A stretch of DNA of 34,020 nucleotides from Dehalococcoidia bacterium (GCA_041494685.1 JBGQBE010000035.1:1-34020); one strand, 5' to 3'; shown: positions 2,296-18,489, counted from the stretch's first letter. A program made the numbers and translations. The notes: a model not told the origin generated them from the sequence alone.

Positions 2296-3546
2296 ATGGC
2301 ACCTCGAACGCGCACGGCCCTCGTCGCGATACTCTTGGCGCTGGCGATCACCGTGGGGACGGCGCTGGTGGTGCGCGTGCACGAGGGCTACATCGCGATC
2401 CCGCACACGTGCTGCCAGGACCACCAGAACTACCTCGCGATGGCGGGCGGACTGCCGGAGCAGCGCGGCGCGGAGAGCACGCCGCCGTTCGCGTACCGCG
2501 TCCTTTCGCCAGCGATCGTGCGCGCGCTTCCCGTGTCGCCCGTTCGGGGGTTCCACTTGCTGACCATGGCCTCGCTGGCGGCGGCGCTGGTGCTGCTGTT
2601 CTACGTGCTGCGGGCGATAGGGTTCGCGGAGCCCAGCGCCGCCGCCGGAATGCTGCTCTGCGGCAGCCTGTACTGGGTGATGGAGTGGCCGCAGATGGAC
2701 TTCGCGCTCGTCGACCCGCTGTCGTTCGCGCTGTTCGCCGCGTGCCTGCTGGCGCTGTATCGCCGCGCACACGTCGCGCCCGTCGCCGGATTGATCTGCC
2801 TGGCGGTCCTGAACAAGGAGATCGGGGTCATGCTGGTGCCTGTGGCGCTCGTCGTCCTTTGGAGGAATCGTCGGTTGACGGCCGGCGCGGCGGCGCTGCT
2901 CTGCGTGGCGCCGGCAGTGACGTTTGCGGCCCTGCGGCTGCTCGTCGCCACGCACGGCGACTACTCGGTGTCGAGCGCCCTCCACGACGCGGTCGAGCAG
3001 CGCTACGGCGACCTTGCTACCGCCGCGCATGACGCCAAGACCTACTTCTTGCCTACCTGGGGGCCGTCCGTCCTGATCGCCGCCGCACAGCCCCAGACCC
3101 TCTGGCGCTTCGTACGGAAGCGCCCGGAACTGCTGCTCCTCTACGCGCTCGTCCACGCGCAACTGCTCCTGGCCGGAGACACCTCCAGGCTCCTCGTCAT
3201 CGCGTTCGTCGCCGTCGTGCCGGCGGTGCTGTATTGCCTGCGGGAGTCGCTGCGGCGCGAGTGGCTCGTGCTCGCGGCGGCGCTCGGCATCGCGTTCATC
3301 CAGGGCTTCTACTTCGAGTTCCAGCGACAGTCCGTCGCCCGCTTCGCGAACGCGCGGACCAGCTTCGACGCATCGACCGTGCACCTCCAGACGAGCATGG
3401 CGTGGCTCATGCTCGCGCTCGCGGTGGCGCTCGCCGTGCCCGTGTGGATGCGGACGGCGCGCCCCGCGCGGCCGGCGGGGCGCCCGCCGCAAGCCTCCGC
3501 CGAAGGGCCGGATGTCCCTGTTGCGCCTCCGGCGCAGCCGTTATGA
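2296..3546 (+). CDS. Multi-pass membrane protein, possibly GT-C-fold glycosyltransferase-like
   Basis: About 10 hydrophobic segments; D-x3-Y and PPFAYR in loop after first TM, NKE motif; start taken at ATG 2296. Confidence 0.6.
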   Translation: MAPRTRTALVAILLALAITVGTALVVRVHEGYIAIPHTCCQDHQNYLAMAGGLPEQRGAESTPPFAYRVLSPAIVRALPVSPVRGFHLLTMASLAAALVLLFYVLRAIGFAEPSAAAGMLLCGSLYWVMEWPQMDFALVDPLSFALFAACLLALYRRAHVAPVAGLICLAVLNKEIGVMLVPVALVVLWRNRRLTAGAAALLCVAPAVTFAALRLLVATHGDYSVSSALHDAVEQRYGDLATAAHDAKTYFLPTWGPSVLIAAAQPQTLWRFVRKRPELLLLYALVHAQLLLAGDTSRLLVIAFVAVVPAVLYCLRESLRREWLVLAAALGIAFIQGFYFEFQRQSVARFANARTSFDASTVHLQTSMAWLMLALAVALAVPVWMRTARPARPAGRPPQASAEGPDVPVAPPAQPL

Positions 3547-3595
3547 TCGTGGCACCGGCGCCTCGGGCCGGGTGGCGAGCGAGGAGGGCGAAACC

Positions 3596-3847
3596 ATGTC
3601 AGTCCGCGGGTACGTGCTGATCGAGGCGGAAGTTGGCAAGGCGAAGGCCGTCGCAGAGGCGATCCACAAAATGAAGCACGGCGACGCCAAGGTCGTCGCG
3701 GTGGATACCGTCACGGGGCCGTTCGACGTGATCGTGCAGCTCGAGGCGGATGACCTGGATAAGCTCGGTAACGCAATCAGCAGCGGCATCCAGCGCGCGG
3801 ACGGCGTCCAGCGCACGACGACGTGCCTGGCCGTGCGGCTGGGGTAG
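3596..3847 (+). CDS. Lrp/AsnC ligand-binding-domain protein (no HTH)
   Basis: 83 aa, YVLIEAEVGKA...VTGPFDVIV...GVQRTTTC pattern; GAGGAGG SD before ATG 3596. Confidence 0.88.
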   Translation: MSVRGYVLIEAEVGKAKAVAEAIHKMKHGDAKVVAVDTVTGPFDVIVQLEADDLDKLGNAISSGIQRADGVQRTTTCLAVRLG

Positions 3848-3859
3848 CGGCTGCGCCGC

Positions 3860-3908
3860 TAGAACCAGATGCGTTCGGCATAGGTTCTACGTTCTTGGTT
3901 CCAGGTTC
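3860..3908. repeat. Hairpin plus four degenerate 7-bp repeats (NNNGTTC) between convergent genes
   Basis: TAGGTTC TACGTTC TTGGTTC CAGGTTC at 3881-3908; TAGAACC 3860-3866 pairs with GGTTCTA 3883-3889. Confidence 0.65.
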
Positions 3909-4703
3909 TCACGGAGTGATGTCGAAGGTGAGGCTGCCGTTGCTGTAACGCAGCAGGCGGTGGTCCGGTGTGGTGGCGAACCAGCCGCGCTGCTGGCTCT
4001 GATCGGCCTCCATCGTCACCAGCCACGCATCCACCTCGCTGCCGCCGACCTTCAGCTTCTGCTGCTCGAGCACCGTGATCACTACGGTCTGCCGCAGGTC
4101 GCCGCGGTTCGAGAGCATCGTCCGGTAGTTCGCCGTCCAGCCCTTCTCGAACTTGATCGTGCGCCAAAGGAAGAGCGATGAGTCGTTCTCGTACGAGTTC
4201 TCCGGCACGCAGACGGGGATGCTGCGCGTGCTGTTGGGCTCGCTGCGAGTCGGCGGCTGGAACGTCGTCTGCGTGATCTTCGCCTGCCGGCCCGTCTTGC
4301 ATTTCGACGTATCGATGTCGTCGTAGGTCACGTCGACCACGCGCTTCTGATCCGAGTCGAGCACCTCGCGATGGTAGGCGCGCGGCTTCAGCGTCTGCGT
4401 GTCGGCACGCACGACGGAGACGTCGGAATTGCCCTTGTCGTCGACGGAGTTCTGCTCCAGCGCGAAGACATCGCCGTCCTTCGTGATCGAGAGCGTGATC
4501 TTCCCCTTCACCTGTCCGTCCTGGGTCAGCGTATACGTGTGCGTTTCCGGCGCCGTCCATGGGATCGTGGAGACGATGTCCTGGCAGTGGAGGCACTCGA
4601 CGCCGGTGTTGCACGACGCGGCGAGCAGCAGGAGCGGCGCGATCAGCGCCGCGGCGAGCAGCCGCATCGAACGGGGGCGCGCCGCACGGCGCAGCAGCGT
4701 CAT
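3909..4703 (-). CDS. Putative lipoprotein, beta-rich (DUF3108-like)
   Basis: Basic N-terminus, hydrophobic stretch and lipobox-like LAASC; ATG 4703 overlaps ltaE stop (ATGA). Confidence 0.65.
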   Translation of the reverse strand: MTLLRRAARPRSMRLLAAALIAPLLLLAASCNTGVECLHCQDIVSTIPWTAPETHTYTLTQDGQVKGKITLSITKDGDVFALEQNSVDDKGNSDVSVVRADTQTLKPRAYHREVLDSDQKRVVDVTYDDIDTSKCKTGRQAKITQTTFQPPTRSEPNSTRSIPVCVPENSYENDSSLFLWRTIKFEKGWTANYRTMLSNRGDLRQTVVITVLEQQKLKVGGSEVDAWLVTMEADQSQQRGWFATTPDHRLLRYSNGSLTFDITP

Positions 4704-5743
4704 GCGAGCGCCGCCGCGGCGTGGCGCACGCGCTCGAGCGCGGCTTCGATATCGGCGCGTTCGATGCCGTAGTGCGTGACCATGCGGATGCGCCCCGGCG
4801 CCGGCGACGTCGCGAGCACACCGGCCCGCTTCATGCCGCGCATCAGGCCAAGCCAATCGCCGTGCACGCCGAAGATGACGATGTTCGTGTCCACGCTCGT
4901 CGGATCGAGTTCGATCGTTGGCAACTCGGCGAGGCCGCGCGCCAGCAGCCGGGCGTTGGCGTGGTCATCGGCCAGGCGGTCGACCATCTGCTCCAGCGCG
5001 TAGACGCCGGCGGCTGCGATGATGCCCGCCTGGCGCATGCCGCCGCCCAGGGCTTTGCGCATCTTCCGCGCCCGTGCGACAAACTCGGCCGAGCCGCAGA
5101 GCACGGAGCCGACGGGCGCGCCCAGCCCCTTCGAGAGGCAGAAGCTCACCGAATCGGCCGGCCCGGCGAGCGCGGCCACGCTGGTACCCAGCGCCAGCGC
5201 GGCGTTGAAGATGCGCGCGCCGTCGATGTGGACGCGGGCGCCGTGGCGGTGCGCGACGTCGGCGAGCGCCTGCGTGTCGTCGAGCGTGACCACCGCGCCG
5301 CCGCAGCGGTTATGCGTGTTCTCAAGGCAGAGCAGCGTCGTGGACGGCAGGTGCACGTTCTCGCCGCGCACGGTCGCCTCCACGTCCGCGGGGTCGATGC
5401 GGCCGCGCGCATCGTTGGGCACGGTGCGGAGTTGCACGCCGGCCACGCCGGCCGCGCCGGCGACCTCGTAGTGCAGGATGTGGGACTCGCTGCCGACGAT
5501 GGCCTCGTCACCGCGCCCGCAGTGGGCCATGATGGCGACCAGGTTGCTCATCGTGCCGCTGGCAACGAAGAGGCCGGTTTCCTTGCCGGTGCGCTCGGCG
5601 GCCATCGCCTCCAGGCGGCGGACGGTCGGGTCCTCGCCGAAGACGTCGTCGCCGACGGCTGCCTCGAAGATGGCGTGGCGCATCGCGTCGGACGGCACGG
5701 TCACGGTATCGGAGCGCAAGTCGATCGCCGGTTGGTCAGTCAT
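4700..5743 (-). CDS. ltaE: Low-specificity L-threonine aldolase (PLP)
   Basis: IDLRSDTVT, GDDVFGEDPT, SGTMSNL, LENTHN, HIDGARIFNA, CLSKGLGAPVGS (PLP Lys), GGGMRQAG. Confidence 0.95.
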   Translation of the reverse strand: MTDQPAIDLRSDTVTVPSDAMRHAIFEAAVGDDVFGEDPTVRRLEAMAAERTGKETGLFVASGTMSNLVAIMAHCGRGDEAIVGSESHILHYEVAGAAGVAGVQLRTVPNDARGRIDPADVEATVRGENVHLPSTTLLCLENTHNRCGGAVVTLDDTQALADVAHRHGARVHIDGARIFNAALALGTSVAALAGPADSVSFCLSKGLGAPVGSVLCGSAEFVARARKMRKALGGGMRQAGIIAAAGVYALEQMVDRLADDHANARLLARGLAELPTIELDPTSVDTNIVIFGVHGDWLGLMRGMKRAGVLATSPAPGRIRMVTHYGIERADIEAALERVRHAAAALA

Positions 5744-6362: not shown

Positions 6363-8381
6363 ATGACCGACGGTACGGGAGATACGCCTCAACCGATCGA
6401 CGCAGGTAAGGCCGACGCCGCCCTGCGATTCAGCCTGGTGCAGCAAGGCGTGGCGGCCGGCGGACAGAAGCCGCCCGTTCCGCTCAACGTCGACGACGCC
6501 GGCGGCGAGAACCCCTCGCGCACGTACCACTTCACCGTCGGTAGCGACCGCAAGATCTACGGCCGCGACGACGCGCTGCCCGCAGGGCCGAGCTTCCCGA
6601 TGACGATGACCCTCCGCACGATGCAAGGTGTCATGGTGGTGCATTCCAGGATCTTCCGTCCCGACGAGCTTGACCCTGACGCACTGCGATGGGACGGCGG
6701 GAGCTCGATGGTGCACGCGGATCTGCCGTCCGACCAGGGGAAGGGGTTTCAGACCGAGTTGCGAAACGAGCACCGCATGCTCCAGTTCGTCCCGCAAGAC
6801 GGCGATTACCTCGGCGCGATCCGTGCCAACATCGTCGCCCTGCAGGACAAAGGCTTCTTGTTCCGTTTCACGGTGGCCGACGACGCAATGGCGGCCCCAT
6901 CGAACACAGGCTTGAACGTCGGTGCTGGCGTTGGGCCGGCGCCAGCAGCGGCCCACGAATTGGGCGGGCCGCTGCCGTCCGCGCCGTTCGATCCTGCGGG
7001 GCCCGCTCCGGAAGCCAACTACGGGCGGAGCGTGGGCCGGTTCCCGCTTCGGCCGCGGATCGCCGCCGGCGCGATCGCGGCGACGGCGGTGATCGGCATC
7101 GGCGGGTACCTGCTGTTCGGTGTCGGCGACAGCGGCAAGGCGAACAACCAGCCAGCGCCGGCGCAGGTGGCGATGGTGCCGACGGCCGGGCCGCCGGTGC
7201 TGCGGTCTGAGGGCCTCAGAGAGCTGCTCAGCGGCATCATGGAGCCGGAGGAGATCGACGCAGCGCTGAGCCACGCCGCCAAACAGGAGCCGGCGTACGC
7301 ACTGATCTACAGCATCCCCGGGACGACGCCCGGCGTCGACGCGCCGTACTTACACATCGACGGCTTTACGGTGTTCAGCGGCACGATCACGACGACGATG
7401 TCCGGCGCGCCTCTGCGCCCCCTATTCGGGGCGTGCGCAAGCCAGCCCGTCGAGGCGTTGCTGATCTGCGACGAGCCGACAGCGAACGCCGCCGCACCTG
7501 GCGCCTACCTGTTCGGCGGCGTGCAGGTCGGCGCACCGATCCCGCTGAACGACACACAGCACGCATACACATACAGCTTGGTCCTGGACGCGGACGGAAG
7601 CCCGGCGAACAACTTCCAGGCGGCGCCCGACTTCAAGTGGGACTACTTCCAGAACACCGACCTCTGGGTGCAGCTCACGTGGGGCGGGCCGAACAATCCG
7701 AATTGGTCACTGGGCGCGACCCGCTTGAACGGCCAGCAGCGCGAGCCCGTGAATGCCGACGTACGCGCCATGATCAGCAAGGACAGCATCCTGTTCATGC
7801 TGCCGAGGTCGCTGGTGCCGGACGCCGACCCGGGCGTGCGATTCACGACGTTCCAGTTCAACGGCACGTCGCCCGACCCGGCGACGGCGGGCGGCGCCGT
7901 CACCGGCGGCGACCCGACGAAGCCGCTGGCGCACATCGGTGCCAACCTGCCGGAATTCGCGTTGTCGGCGAGCGCGAGCGCAGGTTCCACGCCATCATCC
8001 GGCGACACGAGCGATCCGAAGGCGCAGTGGCAGGCGCGGCTACAGGAGTTCGTCTCCAGGCTGCGGGTGCGTGACAACGACTGGCTCTTCGCGCACCTGA
8101 ATCCGGCGGTGCTACAGGTGTACGGCGCTGACCAGTGCAAATCGTCGCTCGCGGGGCGCGCGCCCGACCCAACGATCAACATCGACATCGTCAATGTGAC
8201 GGGGCCGGCGTCCTGGCCGTATACCGCAGAAGGGAAGTCGGTCGCTGTCGACGGCGTCTTCACGGTCGAATCCAATGGGACCGCCCACGGCGAGACGGCG
8301 CCACAGACGTATCACTTCACATACGAGAACGGCGGGGTCGGGTGGTTCACGCAATGTATGCAGACGCAGGGCGGACAGTAG
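6363..8381 (+). CDS. Hypothetical single-pass membrane protein (672 aa)
   Basis: AGGAGG SD; TATACT at 6322-6327; central TM IAAGAIAATAVIGIGGYLLFGV flanked by Pro/Ala-rich linkers. Confidence 0.8.
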   Translation: MTDGTGDTPQPIDAGKADAALRFSLVQQGVAAGGQKPPVPLNVDDAGGENPSRTYHFTVGSDRKIYGRDDALPAGPSFPMTMTLRTMQGVMVVHSRIFRPDELDPDALRWDGGSSMVHADLPSDQGKGFQTELRNEHRMLQFVPQDGDYLGAIRANIVALQDKGFLFRFTVADDAMAAPSNTGLNVGAGVGPAPAAAHELGGPLPSAPFDPAGPAPEANYGRSVGRFPLRPRIAAGAIAATAVIGIGGYLLFGVGDSGKANNQPAPAQVAMVPTAGPPVLRSEGLRELLSGIMEPEEIDAALSHAAKQEPAYALIYSIPGTTPGVDAPYLHIDGFTVFSGTITTTMSGAPLRPLFGACASQPVEALLICDEPTANAAAPGAYLFGGVQVGAPIPLNDTQHAYTYSLVLDADGSPANNFQAAPDFKWDYFQNTDLWVQLTWGGPNNPNWSLGATRLNGQQREPVNADVRAMISKDSILFMLPRSLVPDADPGVRFTTFQFNGTSPDPATAGGAVTGGDPTKPLAHIGANLPEFALSASASAGSTPSSGDTSDPKAQWQARLQEFVSRLRVRDNDWLFAHLNPAVLQVYGADQCKSSLAGRAPDPTINIDIVNVTGPASWPYTAEGKSVAVDGVFTVESNGTAHGETAPQTYHFTYENGGVGWFTQCMQTQGGQ

Positions 8382-8403
8382 TCAGCGGACATCGGCGGCG
8401 GCA

Positions 8404-8442
8404 ATGACGAGAGGGCCGGAACGATCCCGGCCCTCTCGTCAT
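8404..8442. terminator. Probable bidirectional terminator between convergent genes
   Basis: 16-bp perfect stem ATGACGAGAGGGCCGG / CCGGCCCTCTCGTCAT with 7-nt loop. Confidence 0.75.
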
Positions 8443-8464
8443 CCATCCAATCCGTTGCGCCCGG

Positions 8465-9616
8465 CTACAGCGCGCTCTTGTAGATCGCGGCCAGGTCCTC
8501 CGCCGAACCGGGGCGCGGCGCCGCGATGAAGATGCCCTGCGACTTCTGCGCGTCCTCGACGAACTGCGGAATGTCCGACTCCTTCATCCCGACCTCGCTC
8601 AGCTTCGACGTCACTTTGATGTCGCTGCGCAGCGAGCGCACCGCCGCCACGACCTCGGCACCGACCCTCGCCGCTGGCATGCCATAGGAGTTGATGCCCA
8701 TCAGCGGGGCGATCTCCGTCAACTGCTCGGCCAGGAACTCCTTGTGATAGTCCAGCACCTGCGAGAGCAGGATGGCGTTGGCGACGCCGTGCGGCGTGCC
8801 CAGGCGGCCGCTGACGACGTGCGAGAGGCCGTGCACTTGGCCGAGGCCGTTGGCCATGGACTGGCCGGCGATGTTCGCGGCGTAGAGCATGTTGCGCAGC
8901 CCGGCCGGGCGGTCGGGGCCGTTGACGGCCTGGCGCAGGTTCAGGCTGATCTGGTGGATCGCGCGCGTCGCGAACATGCGGGTGAAAGGCGTGTTGCCGG
9001 GGTTCACGTACGCCTCGATGGCGTGGGTGAGCGCGTCCATGCCGGTGGCGGCGGTGATCGGCGCGGGCATCTTGGCCACCAGGTTGGGGTCCAGGATGGC
9101 GACGTTCGGAGTGCAGTTCAGCATCAGGTGCTTGTAGTGCGTGGACGGGTCGGTGATGACGGCCGCGGGAGAGATCTCGGAGCCGGTGCCGCAGGTCGTA
9201 GGGATGGCGAACAGCGGCAGTACCTTGCCGGGGAACGGCGTGCCGCCGACGCCGAACAGGTACTCCTTCGAGGTGGTGCCGCCCATCGCCGCCGTGACGG
9301 CGATGCCCTTCGCGGCGTCGATGGCGCTGCCGCCGCCGACCGCGACGACGAAGTCTCCCTTCACGTCGTTGATCTCGGCGACGCCGCCGTCGACCTCCTG
9401 GATCGTGGGGTTCGGGGTGACGTTCTCGTACACCGTGTGCGCGACGCCGCCTTCGTCGAGCGACGCCAGCACCGAGTCGAGGATGCCCGCGGCGCGGATG
9501 CCGGGATCCGTCACGACAAAGGCGTGCTTGTAGCCAGCGGCCTTGGCGCGCTGACCCAGCTCGGCGATGCTTCCCTCGCCGAACACGGTCTGTACGGTCA
9601 GTGCGAATGTTGCCAT
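8465..9616 (-). CDS. Iron-containing (group III) alcohol dehydrogenase
   Basis: GGGSAIDAAK, IPTTCGTGSE, GMDALTHAIE, VHGLSH, HGVANA metal ligands; AGGAGG SD before ATG 9616. Confidence 0.93.
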   Translation of the reverse strand: MATFALTVQTVFGEGSIAELGQRAKAAGYKHAFVVTDPGIRAAGILDSVLASLDEGGVAHTVYENVTPNPTIQEVDGGVAEINDVKGDFVVAVGGGSAIDAAKGIAVTAAMGGTTSKEYLFGVGGTPFPGKVLPLFAIPTTCGTGSEISPAAVITDPSTHYKHLMLNCTPNVAILDPNLVAKMPAPITAATGMDALTHAIEAYVNPGNTPFTRMFATRAIHQISLNLRQAVNGPDRPAGLRNMLYAANIAGQSMANGLGQVHGLSHVVSGRLGTPHGVANAILLSQVLDYHKEFLAEQLTEIAPLMGINSYGMPAARVGAEVVAAVRSLRSDIKVTSKLSEVGMKESDIPQFVEDAQKSQGIFIAAPRPGSAEDLAAIYKSAL

Positions 9617-9770: not shown

Positions 9771-9844
9771 TGCCGGATCGTTCAATGGTAGGACAGCGGC
9801 CTTTGAAGCCGTGAATCTAGGTTCGAATCCTAGTCCGGCAGCCA
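9771..9844 (+). tRNA. tRNA-Gln (anticodon TTG)
   Basis: Acceptor TGCCGGA/TCCGGCA, D arm GTTC/GGAC, anticodon arm GCGGC-CTTTGAA-GCCGT, T arm CTAGG-TTCGAAT-CCTAG, encoded CCA. Confidence 0.96.
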
Positions 9845-11491: not shown

Positions 11492-11656
11492 TTCCAGTCA
11501 CCGCTGACGCTCCCCGTTCGGAGCGCCGATCCGTGCCTTGCCGATCCAGCCAAAGTCCCGCGATTCCCTGTTCACTCGCGACCACAACGGCCGAGTCATG
11601 AAGGGAGAAGATCCCTAGGGAGGGATCTCGGACGACACGGGCAGTCGAATCAAGCA

Positions 11657-11748
11657 CCTCCGATAAAGGCAAACCCGTCGAAAGGCGGGGACGCAAAACC
11701 ACGGGTCTACCCCCCATTCCTGGGGCATGACAGCCGGGTTGCCGGAAT
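11657..11748 (+). ncRNA. Cyclic di-GMP-I (GEMM) riboswitch aptamer
   Basis: Matches consensus: AAAGGCAAACCCGTC-GAAA-GGCGGGGACGCAAAACCACGGGTCTA...GACAGCCGGGTTGCCG; P1 TCCG(11659-62)/CGGA(11743-46); G at the G20-equivalent position (c-di-GMP rather than cGAMP type). Confidence 0.92.
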
Positions 11749-11799
11749 TCTTGTTTTTCCGTGCCGCGCAAGCGGTCCGGACACACGGAGGTGACCGTC

Positions 11800-13311
11800 A
11801 TGCCAGGTTCCTGGCGACCCAGGCTCCTTATCGCGTTCACGCTCGCGGCCGCCGTGCTTCCCTCGGCGGCCGGCATGGCGAAGGCATCGCGGGCCGCCAC
11901 GGTGCACGACGCCGTATGGGCGTACGAGGCGGCGCACCCGGGACAGGCCGTGCCCGTGATCGTGCAGACCTTCGGCGACGCCGACGCGAGTGCGCTGGTG
12001 ACCGCTGCCGGGGTCGACGTGCGCGGCGACCTCGGCATCATCCACGCCGTCGCGGCGGACGTACCCGCCGGCCGGCTGGCGGCGCTGGCATCCGCGAGCA
12101 GCGTGCGATGGATCAGCCTCGACGGGCCGGTCACGTCGACGTCCCACCCGGACGGGCGCGGCAACGGCGCTGAAGACTCGCCCGACACGGGCGCCGACCT
12201 TCCGCCCAGCGTGTACACCCAGGAGATCGGCGCGGATGGCGTGTCGGCGGACGGCCAGGACGGGACCGGCATCGCCGTAGCCGTGGTCGACACGGGGATC
12301 GTGAAGAGCGCCGACTTCGGCCGGCCGAGCCGCGTAACCGCGACGTTCGGCGGCCCGGGCGACGGCTACGGCCACGGCAGCCACGTGGCGGGCCTGATCG
12401 CCGGCGATGGCGCGAACTCCGACGGACGCTACGCCGGCGTCGCACCGGGCGCGAGCCTGGTGGATGTGAAGGTAGGCGACGACACAGGCGCTGCGACGAT
12501 CAGCGACGTGATCAACGGCCTGGCGTTCGTGCTCGCGAACAAGGACCGCTTGAACATCCGCGTCGTGAACCTCTCTCTGAGCGTGGACACGGCGCAGAGC
12601 TACACGACCGACCCGCTGGACGCCGCGGTCGAGTTGCTGACGTTCCGGGGCGTCCTGGTGGTCGTAGCGGCCGGCAACGCCGGCACGGCCTCGGATGCTG
12701 TGACCTACGCGCCGGCGAACGATCCGTTCGTGCTGACCGTCGGCGCGGTCGACGACCGGGGCACGGCGACCACGGCCGACGACACGGTGCCGCCCTGGTC
12801 GGGCCGCGGCACGACGCAGGACGGCTTCGCGAAGCCGGAGATCTACGCGCCGGGCCGCCACCTGGTGTCGGTGCTCAGCCCGAAGAGCGTGCTGGCTGGT
12901 CAGCAGCCTGAGAGCGTCGTCGGCAAGCACTACTTCTCACTGAGCGGCACATCGATGGCAGCGGGCGTCACGAGCGGCGCGGCTGCGCTGGTGTTCGGCG
13001 CGCACGGCGACTGGACGCCCGGCCAGGTCAAGACCGCGCTCGTATCGGGGGCGCAGCCGGTGCCGTCAGCAGCGTACGCACGGCTCGCCCGCGTGGACGC
13101 CGCGAATGCCCAGGACGCGCCGGCCGATCTGACCTCGACGATCAAGCCGAACTACCTGCTGTTGCAGGCGGCGGGCATCGCCAACCCGGAGACCATCGAC
13201 TGGAGTTCGATCCGCTGGGGCAGCATCCGCTGGGGGTCAATCCGCTGGGGCAGCATCCGCTGGGGTTCGATCCGCTGGGGCAGCATCCGCTGGGGCTTCG
13301 TGCCCGAGTAG
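11800..13311 (+). CDS. Secreted S8 family (subtilisin-like) serine peptidase with C-terminal (SIRWG)6 tail
   Basis: Signal peptide, I9-like prodomain, catalytic Asp (VAVVDTG), His (GHGSHVAG), oxyanion Asn (AAGN), Ser (SGTSMA); GGAGGTG SD before ATG 11800. Confidence 0.94.
   Translation: MPGSWRPRLLIAFTLAAAVLPSAAGMAKASRAATVHDAVWAYEAAHPGQAVPVIVQTFGDADASALVTAAGVDVRGDLGIIHAVAADVPAGRLAALASASSVRWISLDGPVTSTSHPDGRGNGAEDSPDTGADLPPSVYTQEIGADGVSADGQDGTGIAVAVVDTGIVKSADFGRPSRVTATFGGPGDGYGHGSHVAGLIAGDGANSDGRYAGVAPGASLVDVKVGDDTGAATISDVINGLAFVLANKDRLNIRVVNLSLSVDTAQSYTTDPLDAAVELLTFRGVLVVVAAGNAGTASDAVTYAPANDPFVLTVGAVDDRGTATTADDTVPPWSGRGTTQDGFAKPEIYAPGRHLVSVLSPKSVLAGQQPESVVGKHYFSLSGTSMAAGVTSGAAALVFGAHGDWTPGQVKTALVSGAQPVPSAAYARLARVDAANAQDAPADLTSTIKPNYLLLQAAGIANPETIDWSSIRWGSIRWGSIRWGSIRWGSIRWGSIRWGFVPE
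13207..13296 (+). repeat. Coding tandem repeat, 6 x 15 bp encoding SIRWG
   Basis: Units start at 13207, 13222, 13237, 13252, 13267, 13282; ATC CGC TGG GG invariant. Confidence 0.97.
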
Positions 13312-13361
13312 AGAGAGTAAGCCCGCCGCAGTGATGCGCTGCGGGTGAAAGGACCGGCAAG

Positions 13362-14099
13362 GTGAGCGACATTCGATCCAACTCGCTCAAGCTACTAGTA
13401 GGGACGACGGCCCTCGCGGGCGCGTGCGTCACGGTCGCGGGGCTGACACAGCTGAGCACGCACAACGCGATCATGCTGGCGGCCCTGGTAATCGCGGCCG
13501 CGGGCGCCGAGTTCTTCGCGGTCGAGTTGTTCGTGGACAGCCACGTCTCGGTCAGCGGGGCTGCGCTGATGGCAGCGGGGGCGATCTTCGGGCTGCCGGG
13601 CGTGGTGCTCTGCGGGCCGGCGATCGCGCTGGCAGGGCACCTGCGGGATCGGCCGGAGCCGTACAAGACCGTATTCAACTTTGGCGCGCTGGCGGCCGCA
13701 GGTGCCATCTACGTCCTGGTCTTCCGCCTGCTGGACGGGCACGCGGCGACCACCGACTATCGCATGCTGATGGTACCCGCGATCGTGGCGGCGCTGGCGA
13801 ACATGGCCGTGAACTCGGCACTCGTCGCCATCGCGATCAGCCTGGAGTCGGACGAGTCGGCGCTCTCCGTGTGGCGCAGCAACTTCCTGTGGCTGGCGCC
13901 GCAGTACGGAGTGATGGGCGCGGTGGCCATCGGCGCGGCCCTCGCGATGGTCAACTTCGGGACGTGGTCGCTGGCGGTGTTCGCCCTGCCGGTCGTATCG
14001 CTGAGCGAGGCGCTGCACACGCGCGCCGAGGCGATGAAGATGCGGCAGCGGGCGTTGGACACCATCATGTCAGTGCAAGAGCACAAGCGCGCGGCGTAG
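13362..14099 (+). CDS. Multi-pass membrane protein resembling the MASE9-type sensor domain of HD-GYP/GGDEF proteins, without output domain
   Basis: About 7 hydrophobic helices; AE-F, SVS, YKTVFN, NMAVNSALV motifs; ends in short charged helix; GTG start. Confidence 0.65.
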   Translation: MSDIRSNSLKLLVGTTALAGACVTVAGLTQLSTHNAIMLAALVIAAAGAEFFAVELFVDSHVSVSGAALMAAGAIFGLPGVVLCGPAIALAGHLRDRPEPYKTVFNFGALAAAGAIYVLVFRLLDGHAATTDYRMLMVPAIVAALANMAVNSALVAIAISLESDESALSVWRSNFLWLAPQYGVMGAVAIGAALAMVNFGTWSLAVFALPVVSLSEALHTRAEAMKMRQRALDTIMSVQEHKRAA

Positions 14100-14121: not shown

Positions 14122-14155
14122 ACACGAGGGCCCGCCATCCGGCGGGCCTTCGTGT
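14122..14155. terminator. Probable terminator between convergent genes
   Basis: ACACGAGGGCCCGCC-ATCC-GGCGGGCCTTCGTGT stem-loop. Confidence 0.75.
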
Positions 14156-15585: not shown

Positions 15586-16431
15586 CTACCGCGCCGCGGC
15601 CACGAGCGCGGCGCCAAGCGCGCCGGCGAAGCCGGGCGACGGCACGGTCTCGACCTGCATACCGAACAGGCCGGCCATGTGCGCGATCGACTCGACCAGC
15701 AGCCGGTCATGGTGCACGAACCCGCCCGCCAGCACGATGCGGCGCAGTTGCGCCGCGCTCGCGCGCCCCGCCGCGATCTGGGCGATGTTCTCGCCGTGCA
15801 GGTTCAGCAGCCCGGCCAGCACGTCGTCCTGCGAGCCCTCGAGCGAGCGCGCGAGATGCGCCGCCGTGAGATCCGGGCCGACGCGGCCGATGCCGTCCGG
15901 GTAGACGTCGGAGATCATCGCATCGACGCGGCGCCGGTCGCCCCGCTCCGCCGCGGCGATCATCGCTTCATACGGCAGTGACGCGTCGATGCGGTGCGCG
16001 ATGCCGGCGAAGGAGCCGCCGCCGAGCGCCGTGCCGCCCATGTACGTCACGCTTTCGCCGCGCACTGCCGCGAAGGCAGTGCCCGTCCCCATCAGCGCGA
16101 GCAGGAACGCGCCGTCGCCCAGGCGCCCGTCGACTCTTAGCAGTGCCGCCGCCCCGCACGCGCCGGCCTCGATCTCCTGCACGGCCACGACGCCGGGCGC
16201 CTCGGCAAGCGGTCCCAGCCGCGCGCCCGTCACGCCGGCACGCGGCGCGCCGCCGATCAGCGCCACGCCGGCGGCCGCCACCGTCTCACGCGACTCCAGC
16301 GCGACGCCGGCGGCGGTCGCGCGGGCCACTTTCGTCAGCGTCATACCGGCGTCGACGCCGATAGCGCCGGGCGGCAGCAGGCCGGGGGCGCGCAGCAGCG
16401 CATCGTGCATCGAGTGGACGTGGTCGGCCAT
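15586..16431 (-). CDS. Type II pantothenate kinase (CoaW/Fumble-like), start uncertain
   Basis: GVDAGMTLTK, EIEA, GTGT, GGTALGGG, GDR..VD..ISDVY, TAA, GFAGALGA align with type II PanK motifs. Confidence 0.75.
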   Translation of the reverse strand: MADHVHSMHDALLRAPGLLPPGAIGVDAGMTLTKVARATAAGVALESRETVAAAGVALIGGAPRAGVTGARLGPLAEAPGVVAVQEIEAGACGAAALLRVDGRLGDGAFLLALMGTGTAFAAVRGESVTYMGGTALGGGSFAGIAHRIDASLPYEAMIAAAERGDRRRVDAMISDVYPDGIGRVGPDLTAAHLARSLEGSQDDVLAGLLNLHGENIAQIAAGRASAAQLRRIVLAGGFVHHDRLLVESIAHMAGLFGMQVETVPSPGFAGALGAALVAAAR

Positions 16432-16579
16432 GAATCCGCGGCTCCTGGAGCCCCCATTGTGGATCGGCGGCGGGGCTGCGTCGAATCGGGCGGCGTGGAG
16501 GCGCCCGGCCCGCGGCGGCTACACTGTACCGACGCGACAGGCGCGGGTGCCGCCAGCCGCCGCATCAGGAGACACGACG

Positions 16580-17422
16580 ATGCCTCGATCGATCTGGAAA
16601 GGCGCGGTGAGTTTCGGGATGGTCTCGATCCCGATCAAGCTCTACACCGCCACGGAAGAGAAAGACGTCGCCTTCCACATGCTGCACAAGGCGGACGGCG
16701 TGCGCATCAAGCAGCAGCGCTACTGTCCCGAGGACGACGCCGTCATCGAGTGGAACGACGTCGCTCGCGGCTACGAGATCGCGCCGGAGCAGTACGTGAT
16801 CATGGAGCCGGAGGATTTCGAGAAGGTGCCGATAGACACGACGCGCACCATCGAGATCACCGACTTCGTGCCGGCAGCGCAGATCGACCCGATCTACTAC
16901 CAGAAGACCTACTACCTGGAGCCGGACAAGGTGGGCGGCAAGCCGTTCGCGCTGCTGCGCGAGGTGCTGAAGGGCTCCGAACTGGTGGCGCTGGCGAAGA
17001 TCACGCTGCGGCAGAAGGAGCAGCTCTGCACGCTGCGCGTCTACCAGAACACCATCGCGCTGGAGACGATGCTCTACGCCGATGAACTGCGCAGCGCCGC
17101 GGATCTGGACATCCCCGAGGACATCTCCGTGAACGAGAAGGAACTGGCGATGGCGAAGTCGCTCGTCGACATGCTGACCGGCGAGTTCGAGCCGGAGAAG
17201 TACCACGACAACTACCGTGAGGCGCTGCTGGAGTTGATCGAGCGGAAAGCCGAGGGCCAGGAGATCACACGCCCGGTGCCCGTGGCCGGTAAGGTCACGG
17301 ACCTGATGGAGGCGCTGCGAGCGAGCATCGACTCGGCAAAGCGCGAGCGCGCCGCGCCCGCCGAGGCCGAGCAGGAAGCAGAAGCCGCGCCCAGGCCGGC
17401 GCGGCGCAGGAAGGCTGGATGA
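16580..17422 (+). CDS. ku: NHEJ DNA end-binding protein Ku
   Basis: RSIWKGAVSFGMVSIPIKLYTA, IDPIYYQKTYYL, FEPEKYHDNY, DLMEALRAS; AGGAG SD; basic C-tail. Confidence 0.95.
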   Translation: MPRSIWKGAVSFGMVSIPIKLYTATEEKDVAFHMLHKADGVRIKQQRYCPEDDAVIEWNDVARGYEIAPEQYVIMEPEDFEKVPIDTTRTIEITDFVPAAQIDPIYYQKTYYLEPDKVGGKPFALLREVLKGSELVALAKITLRQKEQLCTLRVYQNTIALETMLYADELRSAADLDIPEDISVNEKELAMAKSLVDMLTGEFEPEKYHDNYREALLELIERKAEGQEITRPVPVAGKVTDLMEALRASIDSAKRERAAPAEAEQEAEAAPRPARRRKAG

Positions 17423-18489
17423 CCTCGTCAGGGATCGACGGCGTCACGACTCCGACGGACATCACGAAGCTGCCCGCACCCGCGGGCGGTGGCGGCATGC
17501 CGGACGCGATCGCGCCCATGCTCGCATCGTCCGCGCCGGAGCCGTTCGACTCACCGGAGTACATCTTCGAGCTGATGTGGGGCGGACTGCGCGCCATGGC
17601 GTACGTCCGCGATGGCGTCGTGCGGCTGCGCGCGCGCAATGGCCGCGACCTGACGCCCTATTTCCCGGAGCTGCTCTGCATCCCGGACAGGCTGCACGCG
17701 AAGGAGGCGATCATCGACGGCGAGATCGTCGCCATCGACGGCGAGGGGCACCCGGCGTTCGACATGCTGCGGCAACGGCTGCAGCTGATGGCCAACGCCG
17801 TCGGCCCGGATCGCGAGCAGGTACCCGAGCTGCCTGTGCAGCTCAAGCTGAAGCGCGTGGCGGGGCAACTGGCGTTCCAGGCGTCCGACCTGCTCTGGCT
17901 CGACGGGCGCCCGCTCGTCGAGCGGCCGCTGTGGCAGCGCAAGAACCGGCTGCACGACGCCGTCATCGCGGGCGCCGAGTTCGCGGCGGTGGATTTCGTC
18001 GACGACGAGGGCATGGCGTTCTACGACGCGGTGCTGGAACGCCGGCTGGAGGGCATCGTCGCCAAGGGGAAGCACAGCCTCTACACGCCTGGCAAACGAT
18101 CGCAGCACTGGCTGGAGATCCGGGCGCTGCAAAGCGGCGACTTCGTGGTCGGCGGCTACACGATCGGCGGCGCGCGCCGGAAGTCGGAGCCGTTCTCGCA
18201 GCTGCTGCTGGGTGGCTACGCGCAGGGCCGATTCGAGTACGTGGGTTCCGTGAGCGGCGGCCTTGGTGATGTCGAGGCGCGGGCGCTCATTGCGGACATG
18301 GAGCCGTTGATCGCGGAGTCGAGCCCGTTCTTCGATACGCCGCGGATCCCGCGGCTGATCTACTGGACGCGGCCTGGGGTCGTGTGCCACGTGCGGTTCA
18401 GCGAGTGGTCGCGGGAGGGGCAGCTGCGCTTCCCGATCTTCAGCGCCCTGCGCCCGGACCTGGCCGCGGCGGACTGCGTGATTGAATAA
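17419..18489 (+). CDS. LigD/LigC-type ATP-dependent DNA ligase domain protein (adenylation + OB) with degenerate catalytic motifs
   Basis: PMLA, RNGRDLT.YFPEL, IIDGEIV, LEGIVAK, Y.PGKRS, VVGGYT, LRFP.F..LRPD; but motif I reads ELMWGG and motif V WLEIR; ATGA overlap with ku. Confidence 0.85.
   Translation: MTSSGIDGVTTPTDITKLPAPAGGGGMPDAIAPMLASSAPEPFDSPEYIFELMWGGLRAMAYVRDGVVRLRARNGRDLTPYFPELLCIPDRLHAKEAIIDGEIVAIDGEGHPAFDMLRQRLQLMANAVGPDREQVPELPVQLKLKRVAGQLAFQASDLLWLDGRPLVERPLWQRKNRLHDAVIAGAEFAAVDFVDDEGMAFYDAVLERRLEGIVAKGKHSLYTPGKRSQHWLEIRALQSGDFVVGGYTIGGARRKSEPFSQLLLGGYAQGRFEYVGSVSGGLGDVEARALIADMEPLIAESSPFFDTPRIPRLIYWTRPGVVCHVRFSEWSREGQLRFPIFSALRPDLAAADCVIE

Follow-up and report, generated by a model that had tools for sequence, protein, structure and literature searches.

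In the LapD/LapG system, a periplasmic protease is controlled from the inside out by a receptor for cyclic di-GMP (c-di-GMP). Riboswitches provide another connection, and the sections of a 2007 study on which we draw (PMC1950547) already list subtilases, GGDEF genes, and HD-GYP genes among those associated with the GEMM class, so a link between riboswitch and subtilase is known in kind. In Clostridioides difficile, a class I riboswitch controls zmpI, whose product ZmpI (PPEP-1) releases adhesins from the cell surface (consulted sections of PMC6366702). The MASE9 paper (Galperin and Chou, bioRxiv 10.1101/2021.11.05.467447), in the portion used here, names no ligand or partner for that membrane domain and mentions no protease neighbor. 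Here we describe, within a 34,020-nucleotide stretch of DNA from a Dehalococcoidia bacterium (GCA_041494685.1 JBGQBE010000035.1:1-34020; the whole stretch is called the window), a bicistronic unit at positions 11657 to 14099 that consists of a leader with a c-di-GMP-I aptamer, an S8 subtilase that is exported and retains a complete active site, and a stand-alone MASE9-like membrane protein. The protease ends in an array of Trp-containing pentapeptides, and across three phyla the S8 enzymes of its clade are followed by a gene with a constant MASE9-like membrane domain and outputs that vary (GGDEF plus HD-GYP, HD-GYP, GGDEF, GAF-GGDEF-EAL, or none). As a unit, the module is undescribed in the papers searched, and the supplement of the MASE9 preprint may bear on its novelty; the parts are of known kinds.

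Like zmpI, the window protease gene has a c-di-GMP aptamer in its 5' leader. In contrast to the window enzyme, ZmpI is a zinc metalloprotease that is repressed by c-di-GMP and has neither a repeat tail nor a co-transcribed membrane sensor, whereas the window leader looks like a translational ON platform and its operon includes the MASE9-like gene. The resemblance to LapD/LapG is an analogy of working only, in that a membrane protein of c-di-GMP signaling would be paired with an extracytoplasmic protease acting on surface proteins. LapG, however, is a cysteine protease and the window enzyme belongs to family S8, and LapD has a folded periplasmic domain and a degenerate GGDEF-EAL module, whereas the window partner has no periplasmic domain; homology to either protein was neither found nor looked for. 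MASE9 has about eight transmembrane segments, two of them short, and conserved polar residues in the membrane; the window protein is polytopic and appears to have a similar layout, and it has relatives fused to HD-GYP, GGDEF, or GGDEF-EAL. It differs from MASE9 proper in scoring below the Pfam gathering cut-off (PF20972, E = 9e-4, 19.7 versus 24.3 bits) and in having no output domain to which it could be N-terminal, the position that marks MASE9.

The analysis found a linkage between tail-bearing proteases and this membrane domain. A search for related loci gave 73 loci of the window's S8 family, 56 of which are tail-bearing, by which we mean that they encode an S8 in which aromatic residues recur every five positions at least four times in a row. 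In 32 of these 56, the gene for a MASE9-like homologue of c-di-GMP enzymes starts on the S8 strand no more than 600 bp past the protease gene. All 12 partners that were scanned (about 890 to 1025 aa) have the order membrane domain, GGDEF, membrane domain, HD-GYP, and 7 of them match MASE9; some fused partners exceed the MASE9 cut-off (39 bits in L073 and 34.5 in L062). A profile made from stand-alone relatives of the window protein recognized two MASE9-like domains in the large partners and placed at least one such domain on the S8 strand in 43 of the 73 loci. As a blind control, we took the best Pfam-S8 locus from each of 30 Chloroflexota genomes (the S8 tally for this control took in one unpublished genome, G038, none of whose loci was used). 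A Trp chain was present in three of these 30 loci (6, 9, and 16 units), and a MASE9-like gene lay 0 to 100 bp downstream in all three, versus none of the other 27 (Fisher p = 2.5e-4, with related genomes that are not fully independent). The linkage is strong, so conserved linkage, whose absence an earlier note on this DNA had named as grounds for giving up its proposed signaling module, is what the survey found.

Since the three blind loci, once extended, differ in architecture (in one, membrane domain-GGDEF comes after a stand-alone domain; the others have membrane domain-HD-GYP-PAS-GGDEF and membrane domain-GAF-GGDEF-EAL), we conclude that the membrane domain is the constant partner and that the output varies. 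The domain even persists without any output domain, as in the window, in a paralogous unit on contig C5 of the same genome, and in L005, L024, and L110. A search for a third gene conserved across phyla found none; only Gaiellaceae-type loci have MurT on their upstream side, in opposite orientation, and an HNH_repeat protein on their downstream side. As an instance of such lineage-specific synteny, the partner gene in L050, L051, L064, L070, and L072 (about 8270 to 9360) is followed by a gene for a protein with two HNH_repeat domains. Separately, L006 encodes at 3163-5271 a 702-aa protein that joins a MASE9-like domain to a lactate-racemase N-terminal domain (Lar_N), an unusual output for a sensor of this type, directly 3' of the S8 gene and a MASE9-like-HD-GYP gene.

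Riboswitches also co-occur with these proteases, a point that the earlier note had suggested surveying. With a covariance model of our own, 21 of the 73 family loci yielded 26 aptamers in total, of which 25 share the strand of the S8 gene, and Rfam gathering thresholds confirmed aptamers in all 34 loci that were rescanned, except for a weak second match in L047. In the blind sample, aptamers accompany one tail-bearing S8 and one other S8. We rejected the idea that riboswitch and enzymatic partner replace each other, as both are present in 15 of the 73 loci, about the number expected under independence. An aptamer without the remainder of the module was seen in L095 (821-907; 72 bits with our model), where it precedes an 867-aa S8 that has neither a Trp tail nor a MASE9-like neighbor. 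Tandem or multiple c-di-GMP-I aptamers precede tail-bearing S8 genes in metagenome-assembled genomes of the Anaerolineae type (L014 3652-3833; L039 3497-3734; L012 1-209 and 1972-2064; L047 3343-3616).

The window aptamer occupies 11659-11747 (+) and ends 52 nt before ATG 11800 of the S8 gene on the same strand; the C5 paralogue and L005 have the same layout. It matches RF03167 with 79.8 bits (E = 1.3e-17, gathering threshold 59) and, at the same site, the canonical c-di-GMP-I model RF01051 with 86.9 bits at C35:11658-11746 against a cut-off of 35, and it owes the "GGC" variant label that cmscan assigns (RF03167) to clan competition. In the model alignment, the G that defines the RF03167 variant at a ligand-contact position is absent from the window aptamer, which reads GACGCAAA where the RF03167 consensus is GACGCGAA, that is, A and not G, and the same A is present in 7 of 7 aligned related aptamers. 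We take "GGC" to mean that a G replaces the intercalating adenine of the c-di-GMP-I aptamer; if this is right, the window aptamer would make the standard c-di-GMP contact, because the A is present. Binding of c-di-GMP and control of expression by this aptamer are predictions from its sequence.

A possible expression platform is formed by two octamers of the leader. The first, CACCUCCG (11655-11662, +), comprises the 5' flank and the 5' strand of stem P1 and is a candidate anti-Shine-Dalgarno element; it is perfectly complementary to the second, the Shine-Dalgarno region CGGAGGUG (11786-11793, +; read directly), and the two are paired in the minimum free energy fold. Both octamers are kept in all three leaders of this lineage (window, C5 paralogue, and L005), among which the intervening spacer varies both in length and in sequence, and in other lineages different complements are found beside the ribosome-binding sites. 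Without ligand, the 5' strand of P1 would pair with the Shine-Dalgarno region, and c-di-GMP would lock P1, withhold the anti-Shine-Dalgarno, and free the ribosome-binding site. A ligand-stabilized P1 that withholds the anti-Shine-Dalgarno would make this an ON switch, with translation on at high c-di-GMP, and we infer a translational ON switch on this basis.

The leader is followed by a gene for a 503-aa pre-pro S8 subtilase of the Trp-tail clade (11800-13311, +; open reading frame 11761-13311), whose likely start, ATG 11800, lies 8 nt past GGAGG. On direct reading, its N-terminus MPGSWRPRLLIAFTLAAAVLPSAAGMAKA resembles a Sec signal peptide with n-, h-, and c-regions, putatively spanning aa 1-29 (11800-11886, +) up to an inferred cleavage site. 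The catalytic domain (12262-13056, +) matches Pfam Peptidase_S8 (PF00082) with E = 7.3e-41, and D164, H192, S385, and the oxyanion N293 (numbered from the ATG) stand in invariant columns of a 36-sequence alignment, the Asp, His, and Ser lying in the DTG, HGxH, and GTSxA motifs expected of PF00082. Among 8000 candidates, 3046 S8 homologues had E <= 1e-3, and the nearest solved relatives are the subtilisin-like serine proteases 9ues and 3afg (E about 1e-44). The best NCBIfam match is the mycosin model TIGR03921, at 116.6 bits and thus far below its cut-off of 278.75. In mycosins and in Tk-SP-type subtilases (3afg, 9ues), elements at the C-terminus position or stabilize the enzyme; the window S8 lacks a C-terminal transmembrane helix and does not lie in a type VII secretion context. 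In one 602-aa homologue (P0047), the S8 frame continues into MASE9-like sequence, either as a true fusion or as an artefact of a frameshift or gene call.

GTG 13362, located 50 nt past the protease stop, starts the stand-alone MASE9-like protein of 245 aa (13362-14099, +), which has 7 to 8 hydrophobic stretches by hydropathy alone, including a 35-residue double segment at 61-95, plus a short basic C-terminal helix; the protein ends about 30 residues past the last helix. E50, S63, and F105-N106 are nearly invariant. Its 680 homologues are stand-alone or fused, with HD-GYP, GGDEF, EAL, or HisKA as the fused domains; among 31 stand-alone relatives, 13 match MASE9 at E <= 0.01, the best of them at 4.6e-9, and no other family competes; the window protein aligns with the second, HD-GYP-proximal membrane domain of the large partners. 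Membrane domains that are linked to a tail-bearing S8 share the motif W-L-x-P-x-Y-x3-G at 73-94%, versus 4-23% in unlinked ones (W177...G186 in the window protein). The description that the earlier note had given of the unit from its sequence agrees with these results: an aptamer about 50 nt before a secreted S8 with signal peptide and intact triad, and, 50 bp downstream on the same strand, a protein of about seven transmembrane segments, of a kind usually fused to GGDEF, EAL, or HD-GYP outputs. The same holds for its reading of the protease C-terminus as TIDWS-(SIRWG)6-FVPE, where our repeat analysis also places the tail.

This tail with its FVPE cap (13192-13308, +) was detected by Tandem Repeats Finder at 13210-13296, both at period 15 (5.8 copies, 77% matches) and at period 30 (2.9 copies, 96%). 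The SIRWG units have the same amino acids and differ in their Ser and Gly codons, and recent duplication explains part of their identity, because the 30-bp DNA super-unit is 96% identical; identical units with codon differences point to duplication plus constraint and fit either a peptide or a folded reading. Repeats of the form [SAG]-[IV]-x-W-[GSD] are present in 114 of the 120 best homologues (at least three Trp residues spaced by five), and the remaining six are fragments, one read-through form, or a period-10 variant. Within the 114 tails, the Trp is invariant, position 2 holds I or V (95%), the unit number has its median and mode at 7 (40 of 114), and 5 residues follow the last Trp in 41. 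Conserved caps flank the array on both sides, and distant relatives in Actinomycetota and Bacillota have RSRWS, xASWx, NVFFE, and QAYWD units. Chance is excluded by the Rfam scores and by how often the tail recurs (114 of 120 homologues).

A FastTree tree built solely from the catalytic part, with 64 rows, unites the tail-bearing S8s in one clade with support 99, which comprises all 32 rows with a chain of at least 4 plus two Solirubrobacterales genes with shorter chains; 30 other S8s of the same phylum and genome fall outside it, and the tail label changes 2 times on the tree versus 21.7 in shuffles. The clade spans Chloroflexota, Actinomycetota, and Bacillota. In some loci (L011, L012, L015, L017, L018, L019, L026, L036, L038, and L062), tail-bearing S8 genes follow one another as tandem pairs or triplets, often with unlike repeat units and one common downstream partner. 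We also tried a DNA pattern, (TGG-N12)x5-TGG, as a measure of prevalence and rejected it, as its 102 hits among 401 Chloroflexota genomes stand against a reversed-pattern control that was frequently positive (the tally took in the unpublished genome G272, on which nothing rests).

With pentapeptide-repeat proteins (PF00805, PF01469, and TIGR02953), the tail shares period five and an alternating inward and outward character, and it differs from them in its invariant Trp, its short array, and its constant position C-terminal to an S8. The window tail matches no Pfam or NCBIfam model, and none of six isolated tails matched PF00805, PF13599, or PF13576 at E <= 10. With Pentapeptide_2 (PF01469, cut-off 26.4 bits), the window tail gave no match, the tail of the C5 paralogue reached 14.3 bits, and the SVNWG-type tail of L039 passed with 46 bits; one AIKWD-type tail passed TIGR02953 (MxKDx; 43.6 versus 41). 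No tail type matches a solved structure in the PDB, the repeat strings are absent from the papers searched, and a tail query of the ESM Atlas returned small unnamed clusters at 0.90-0.91 only, which are uninformative. A comparison of tail words with longer proteins gave five candidates, every one from the same S8 group.

The earlier note had proposed that the tail is a multi-copy peptide precursor, released by the protease and read by the adjacent membrane protein, and had offered an assembly or surface-binding beta element as the alternative. Subtilisins take large hydrophobic residues at P1, and the Phr pentapeptides of Bacillus are released by subtilisin-type proteases, two points in favor of a precursor. 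As in Phr/Rap and multi-core precursors, the units are pentapeptide-sized and a subtilisin-type protease is at hand, but the window repeats are fused to the protease and have no linked gene for a small precursor, a transporter, or a cytoplasmic receptor. The units are identical within the window protein despite their codon differences and unlike between species and between paralogues of one genome (SIRWG versus SISWG/SVSWG), both of which a peptide cassette would lead one to expect. The GIRW-type tails give a different picture: in 13 aligned proteins the units are mutually unlike, keep their order, and form a 10-residue super-repeat. In five GIRW pairs, the tail is 61-81% identical compared with 53-75% for the catalytic part, and in close orthologues 82-93% compared with 83-85% overall. 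Because non-identical units are conserved in order across orthologues, the GIRW tail behaves as a folded domain would. Searches for the accessories of a peptide system were negative, with no small protein (30-97 aa) sharing three words with the tail in 5.8 billion clusters, no stand-alone repeat open reading frame in the 73 loci, and no conserved modifying, export, or transporter gene nearby in the loci compared. These ordered GIRW units, together with the stable unit number, are better accommodated by the beta element of the earlier note than by its peptide precursor, and a folded docking or anchoring domain is the most likely nature of the tail.

The co-variation of repeat and membrane protein that the earlier note had suggested looking for is present, at a strength that we count as suggestive only. 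Tail-unit distance correlates with the distance between adjacent MASE9-like domains (r = 0.63, 27 pairs, in a Mantel-type test of a kind that shared ancestry inflates), the partial correlation is 0.40 when the S8 catalytic domain is controlled and 0.36 when the HD-GYP of the partner is controlled (permutation p = 0.0002), and the reverse partial vanishes (-0.14). This co-variation points to some specific relation between tail and membrane domain.

On balance, we favor the view that the subtilase of the window acts at the surface under c-di-GMP control and that its Trp-repeat domain serves to dock it at the envelope, probably next to the MASE9-like protein. The tail would be a folded beta-type repeat domain that is retained on the mature enzyme and keeps the protease at the cell surface, with the MASE9-like protein or its immediate vicinity as the most likely site, and the two proteins would work as a pair. 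The sensor would, in most lineages, turn this pairing into synthesis or hydrolysis of c-di-GMP; in the lineage of the window, the enzymatic outputs would have been lost and the link to c-di-GMP would run via the riboswitch. The substrates of the protease would probably be surface or matrix proteins, as with other c-di-GMP-controlled proteases. We are more doubtful of a stronger form of this idea, in which the MASE9-like domain has the Trp tail as its extracytoplasmic ligand, either still tethered and folded or, with lower probability, self-released as W-pentapeptides.

Several observations weigh against docking of the protease beside the membrane protein and against the switch described above. 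In 22 tail-bearing loci with enough downstream sequence, no partner lies within 600 bp, and the link is one-sided, as only 3 of 28 MASE9-like loci (two regions; 24 other Chloroflexota genomes) adjoin a tail-bearing S8. The loops that the membrane protein is predicted to expose on the outside do not exceed about 12 residues and therefore offer little surface to a docked domain; the motif of the linked membrane domains lies near the cytoplasmic end of a helix on a hydropathy reading and may be merely a subfamily mark. With the catalytic domain alone controlled, the tail also tracks the cytoplasmic HD-GYP (partial r = 0.29, p = 0.005). Units that are perfectly identical within a protein and differ between species are, as noted, also what peptide cassettes would look like. 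In the leader, the stability of the fold does not differ significantly from that of shuffles (z = -1.69), and the pair of Shine-Dalgarno and anti-Shine-Dalgarno shows no covariation, because both sides are invariant.

Docking beside the membrane protein competes with a reading, to which we give a low but appreciable probability, in which the two genes are co-regulated and nothing more, the tail being a general anchor to envelope or polymer, or an oligomerization element, that never touches the MASE9-like protein. The genes would be adjacent because c-di-GMP enzymes and effectors under c-di-GMP control are often co-transcribed, with feedback on the messenger pool. The list of 2007, in the sections on which we draw, with GEMM riboswitches before GGDEF genes, HD-GYP genes, and subtilases alike (PMC1950547), agrees with it, as do the aptamer before the tail-less S8 of L095, the tail-bearing loci without an adjacent partner, the majority of MASE9-like genes that have no tail-bearing S8 beside them, and the short outside loops. 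Against co-regulation alone stands the fact that the constant neighbor is the membrane domain and not a catalytic output; it stays when the outputs are gone, and a stand-alone membrane domain is by itself incapable of feedback on the c-di-GMP pool. Moreover, none of the 27 other blind S8 loci has such a neighbor, and tail type tracks the membrane domain better than it tracks the cytoplasmic domain of the same protein.

It is unlikely that the tail is a C-terminal pro-segment which serves export, folding, or inhibition (for example, by lying in the substrate cleft) and is removed at maturation without any signaling role. Some subtilases do have C-terminal extensions that are removed or that stabilize the enzyme. 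In this respect it fits that the 3afg chain (539 aa) runs past the aligned catalytic part and that the tail lies at the extreme C-terminus, the last Trp being followed by only 5 residues in 41 of 114 proteins. A pro-segment would, however, leave the linkage and co-variation with the MASE9-like domain unexplained, and the solved structures, none of which any tail type matches, provide no positive support. Least probable of all is the quorum-like precursor, in which identical pentapeptides would be cut out after each Trp and sensed by the membrane protein; the conserved partner is of a sensor type and co-varies with the tail, as this reading would have it, but the fixed orthologous order of non-identical GIRW units, the stable number of units between conserved caps, the absence of small word-sharing proteins, repeat open reading frames, and accessory genes from the sets searched, and a unit identity that recent duplication explains in part argue against it.

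For surface docking of a c-di-GMP-controlled protease, the remaining c-di-GMP loci of the genome provide context. The genome has four c-di-GMP-I aptamers, two of which precede tail-bearing S8 operons that are alike in design (the window and the C5 paralogue). The C5 unit (C5:43490-47520; L078 1490-5523) comprises an aptamer of 87.6 bits, an S8 with (SISWG/SVSWG)7, and a stand-alone MASE9-like protein, with a divergent MASE9-like-HD-GYP gene beside it; its S8 is 62% and its membrane protein 36% identical to that of the window. On contig C52 (8945-11439; L079), an aptamer of 60.1 bits precedes a gene for a sigma-70-family factor with regions 2, 3, and 4, followed by a MASE9-like-HD-GYP gene, and a GGDEF gene lies just beyond. 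The target of the fourth aptamer (C36:12529-12616, minus strand; L003 1501-1588; 74.3 bits) is unclear, because the next clear open reading frame, which is SRPBCC/polyketide-cyclase-like, lies about 650 nt downstream. Three of these four riboswitch loci together contain every one of the four MASE9-like domains that the genome encodes, and with 17 GGDEF and 17 HD_5 matches the genome is equipped to make and degrade c-di-GMP.

The unit is bounded downstream by a 15-bp GC-rich hairpin at 14122-14155, between convergent genes, that is more stable than shuffles (z = -4.1). The hairpin of the terminator that the earlier note had placed here thus stands; no U-tract follows it and it is unlisted in the consensus scan, and we regard it as a probable terminator. 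Past it lies a convergent EVE-domain gene, and the genes flanking the unit are housekeeping genes. Elsewhere in the window, a tRNA gene (9771-9841, +; Rfam 63.9 bits), also found upstream in the syntenic L005, lies between genes for an Fe-alcohol dehydrogenase and an aldose epimerase, and a Ku-domain gene adjoins an ATP-dependent DNA ligase gene (15989-18489, +), as a non-homologous end-joining pair.

MASE-type membrane domains head many c-di-GMP enzymes, and a protease clade that is linked to a MASE9-like domain whatever its output provides a concrete, testable candidate for the cue of such a sensor. The Trp pentapeptide array itself is a widespread C-terminal domain, undescribed in the searches made. 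As the hosts are uncultured Chloroflexota, Actinomycetota, and Bacillota, practical impact hinges on heterologous work. If the Trp tail is indeed the ligand of the MASE9-like domain, protease and membrane protein would make up a relay, complete in itself, that connects surface proteolysis with c-di-GMP turnover, and in which the riboswitch would close the loop in lineages like that of the window, where the sensor has lost its enzymatic outputs. Such a relay would provide the first partner or signal for a MASE9-type domain, and it would realize a LapD/LapG-like logic with unrelated parts in monoderm phyla. The module shows two wirings of one protease to c-di-GMP, by an adjacent enzyme or by a riboswitch, and may in this way be of use for studying how second-messenger circuits are rebuilt in evolution.

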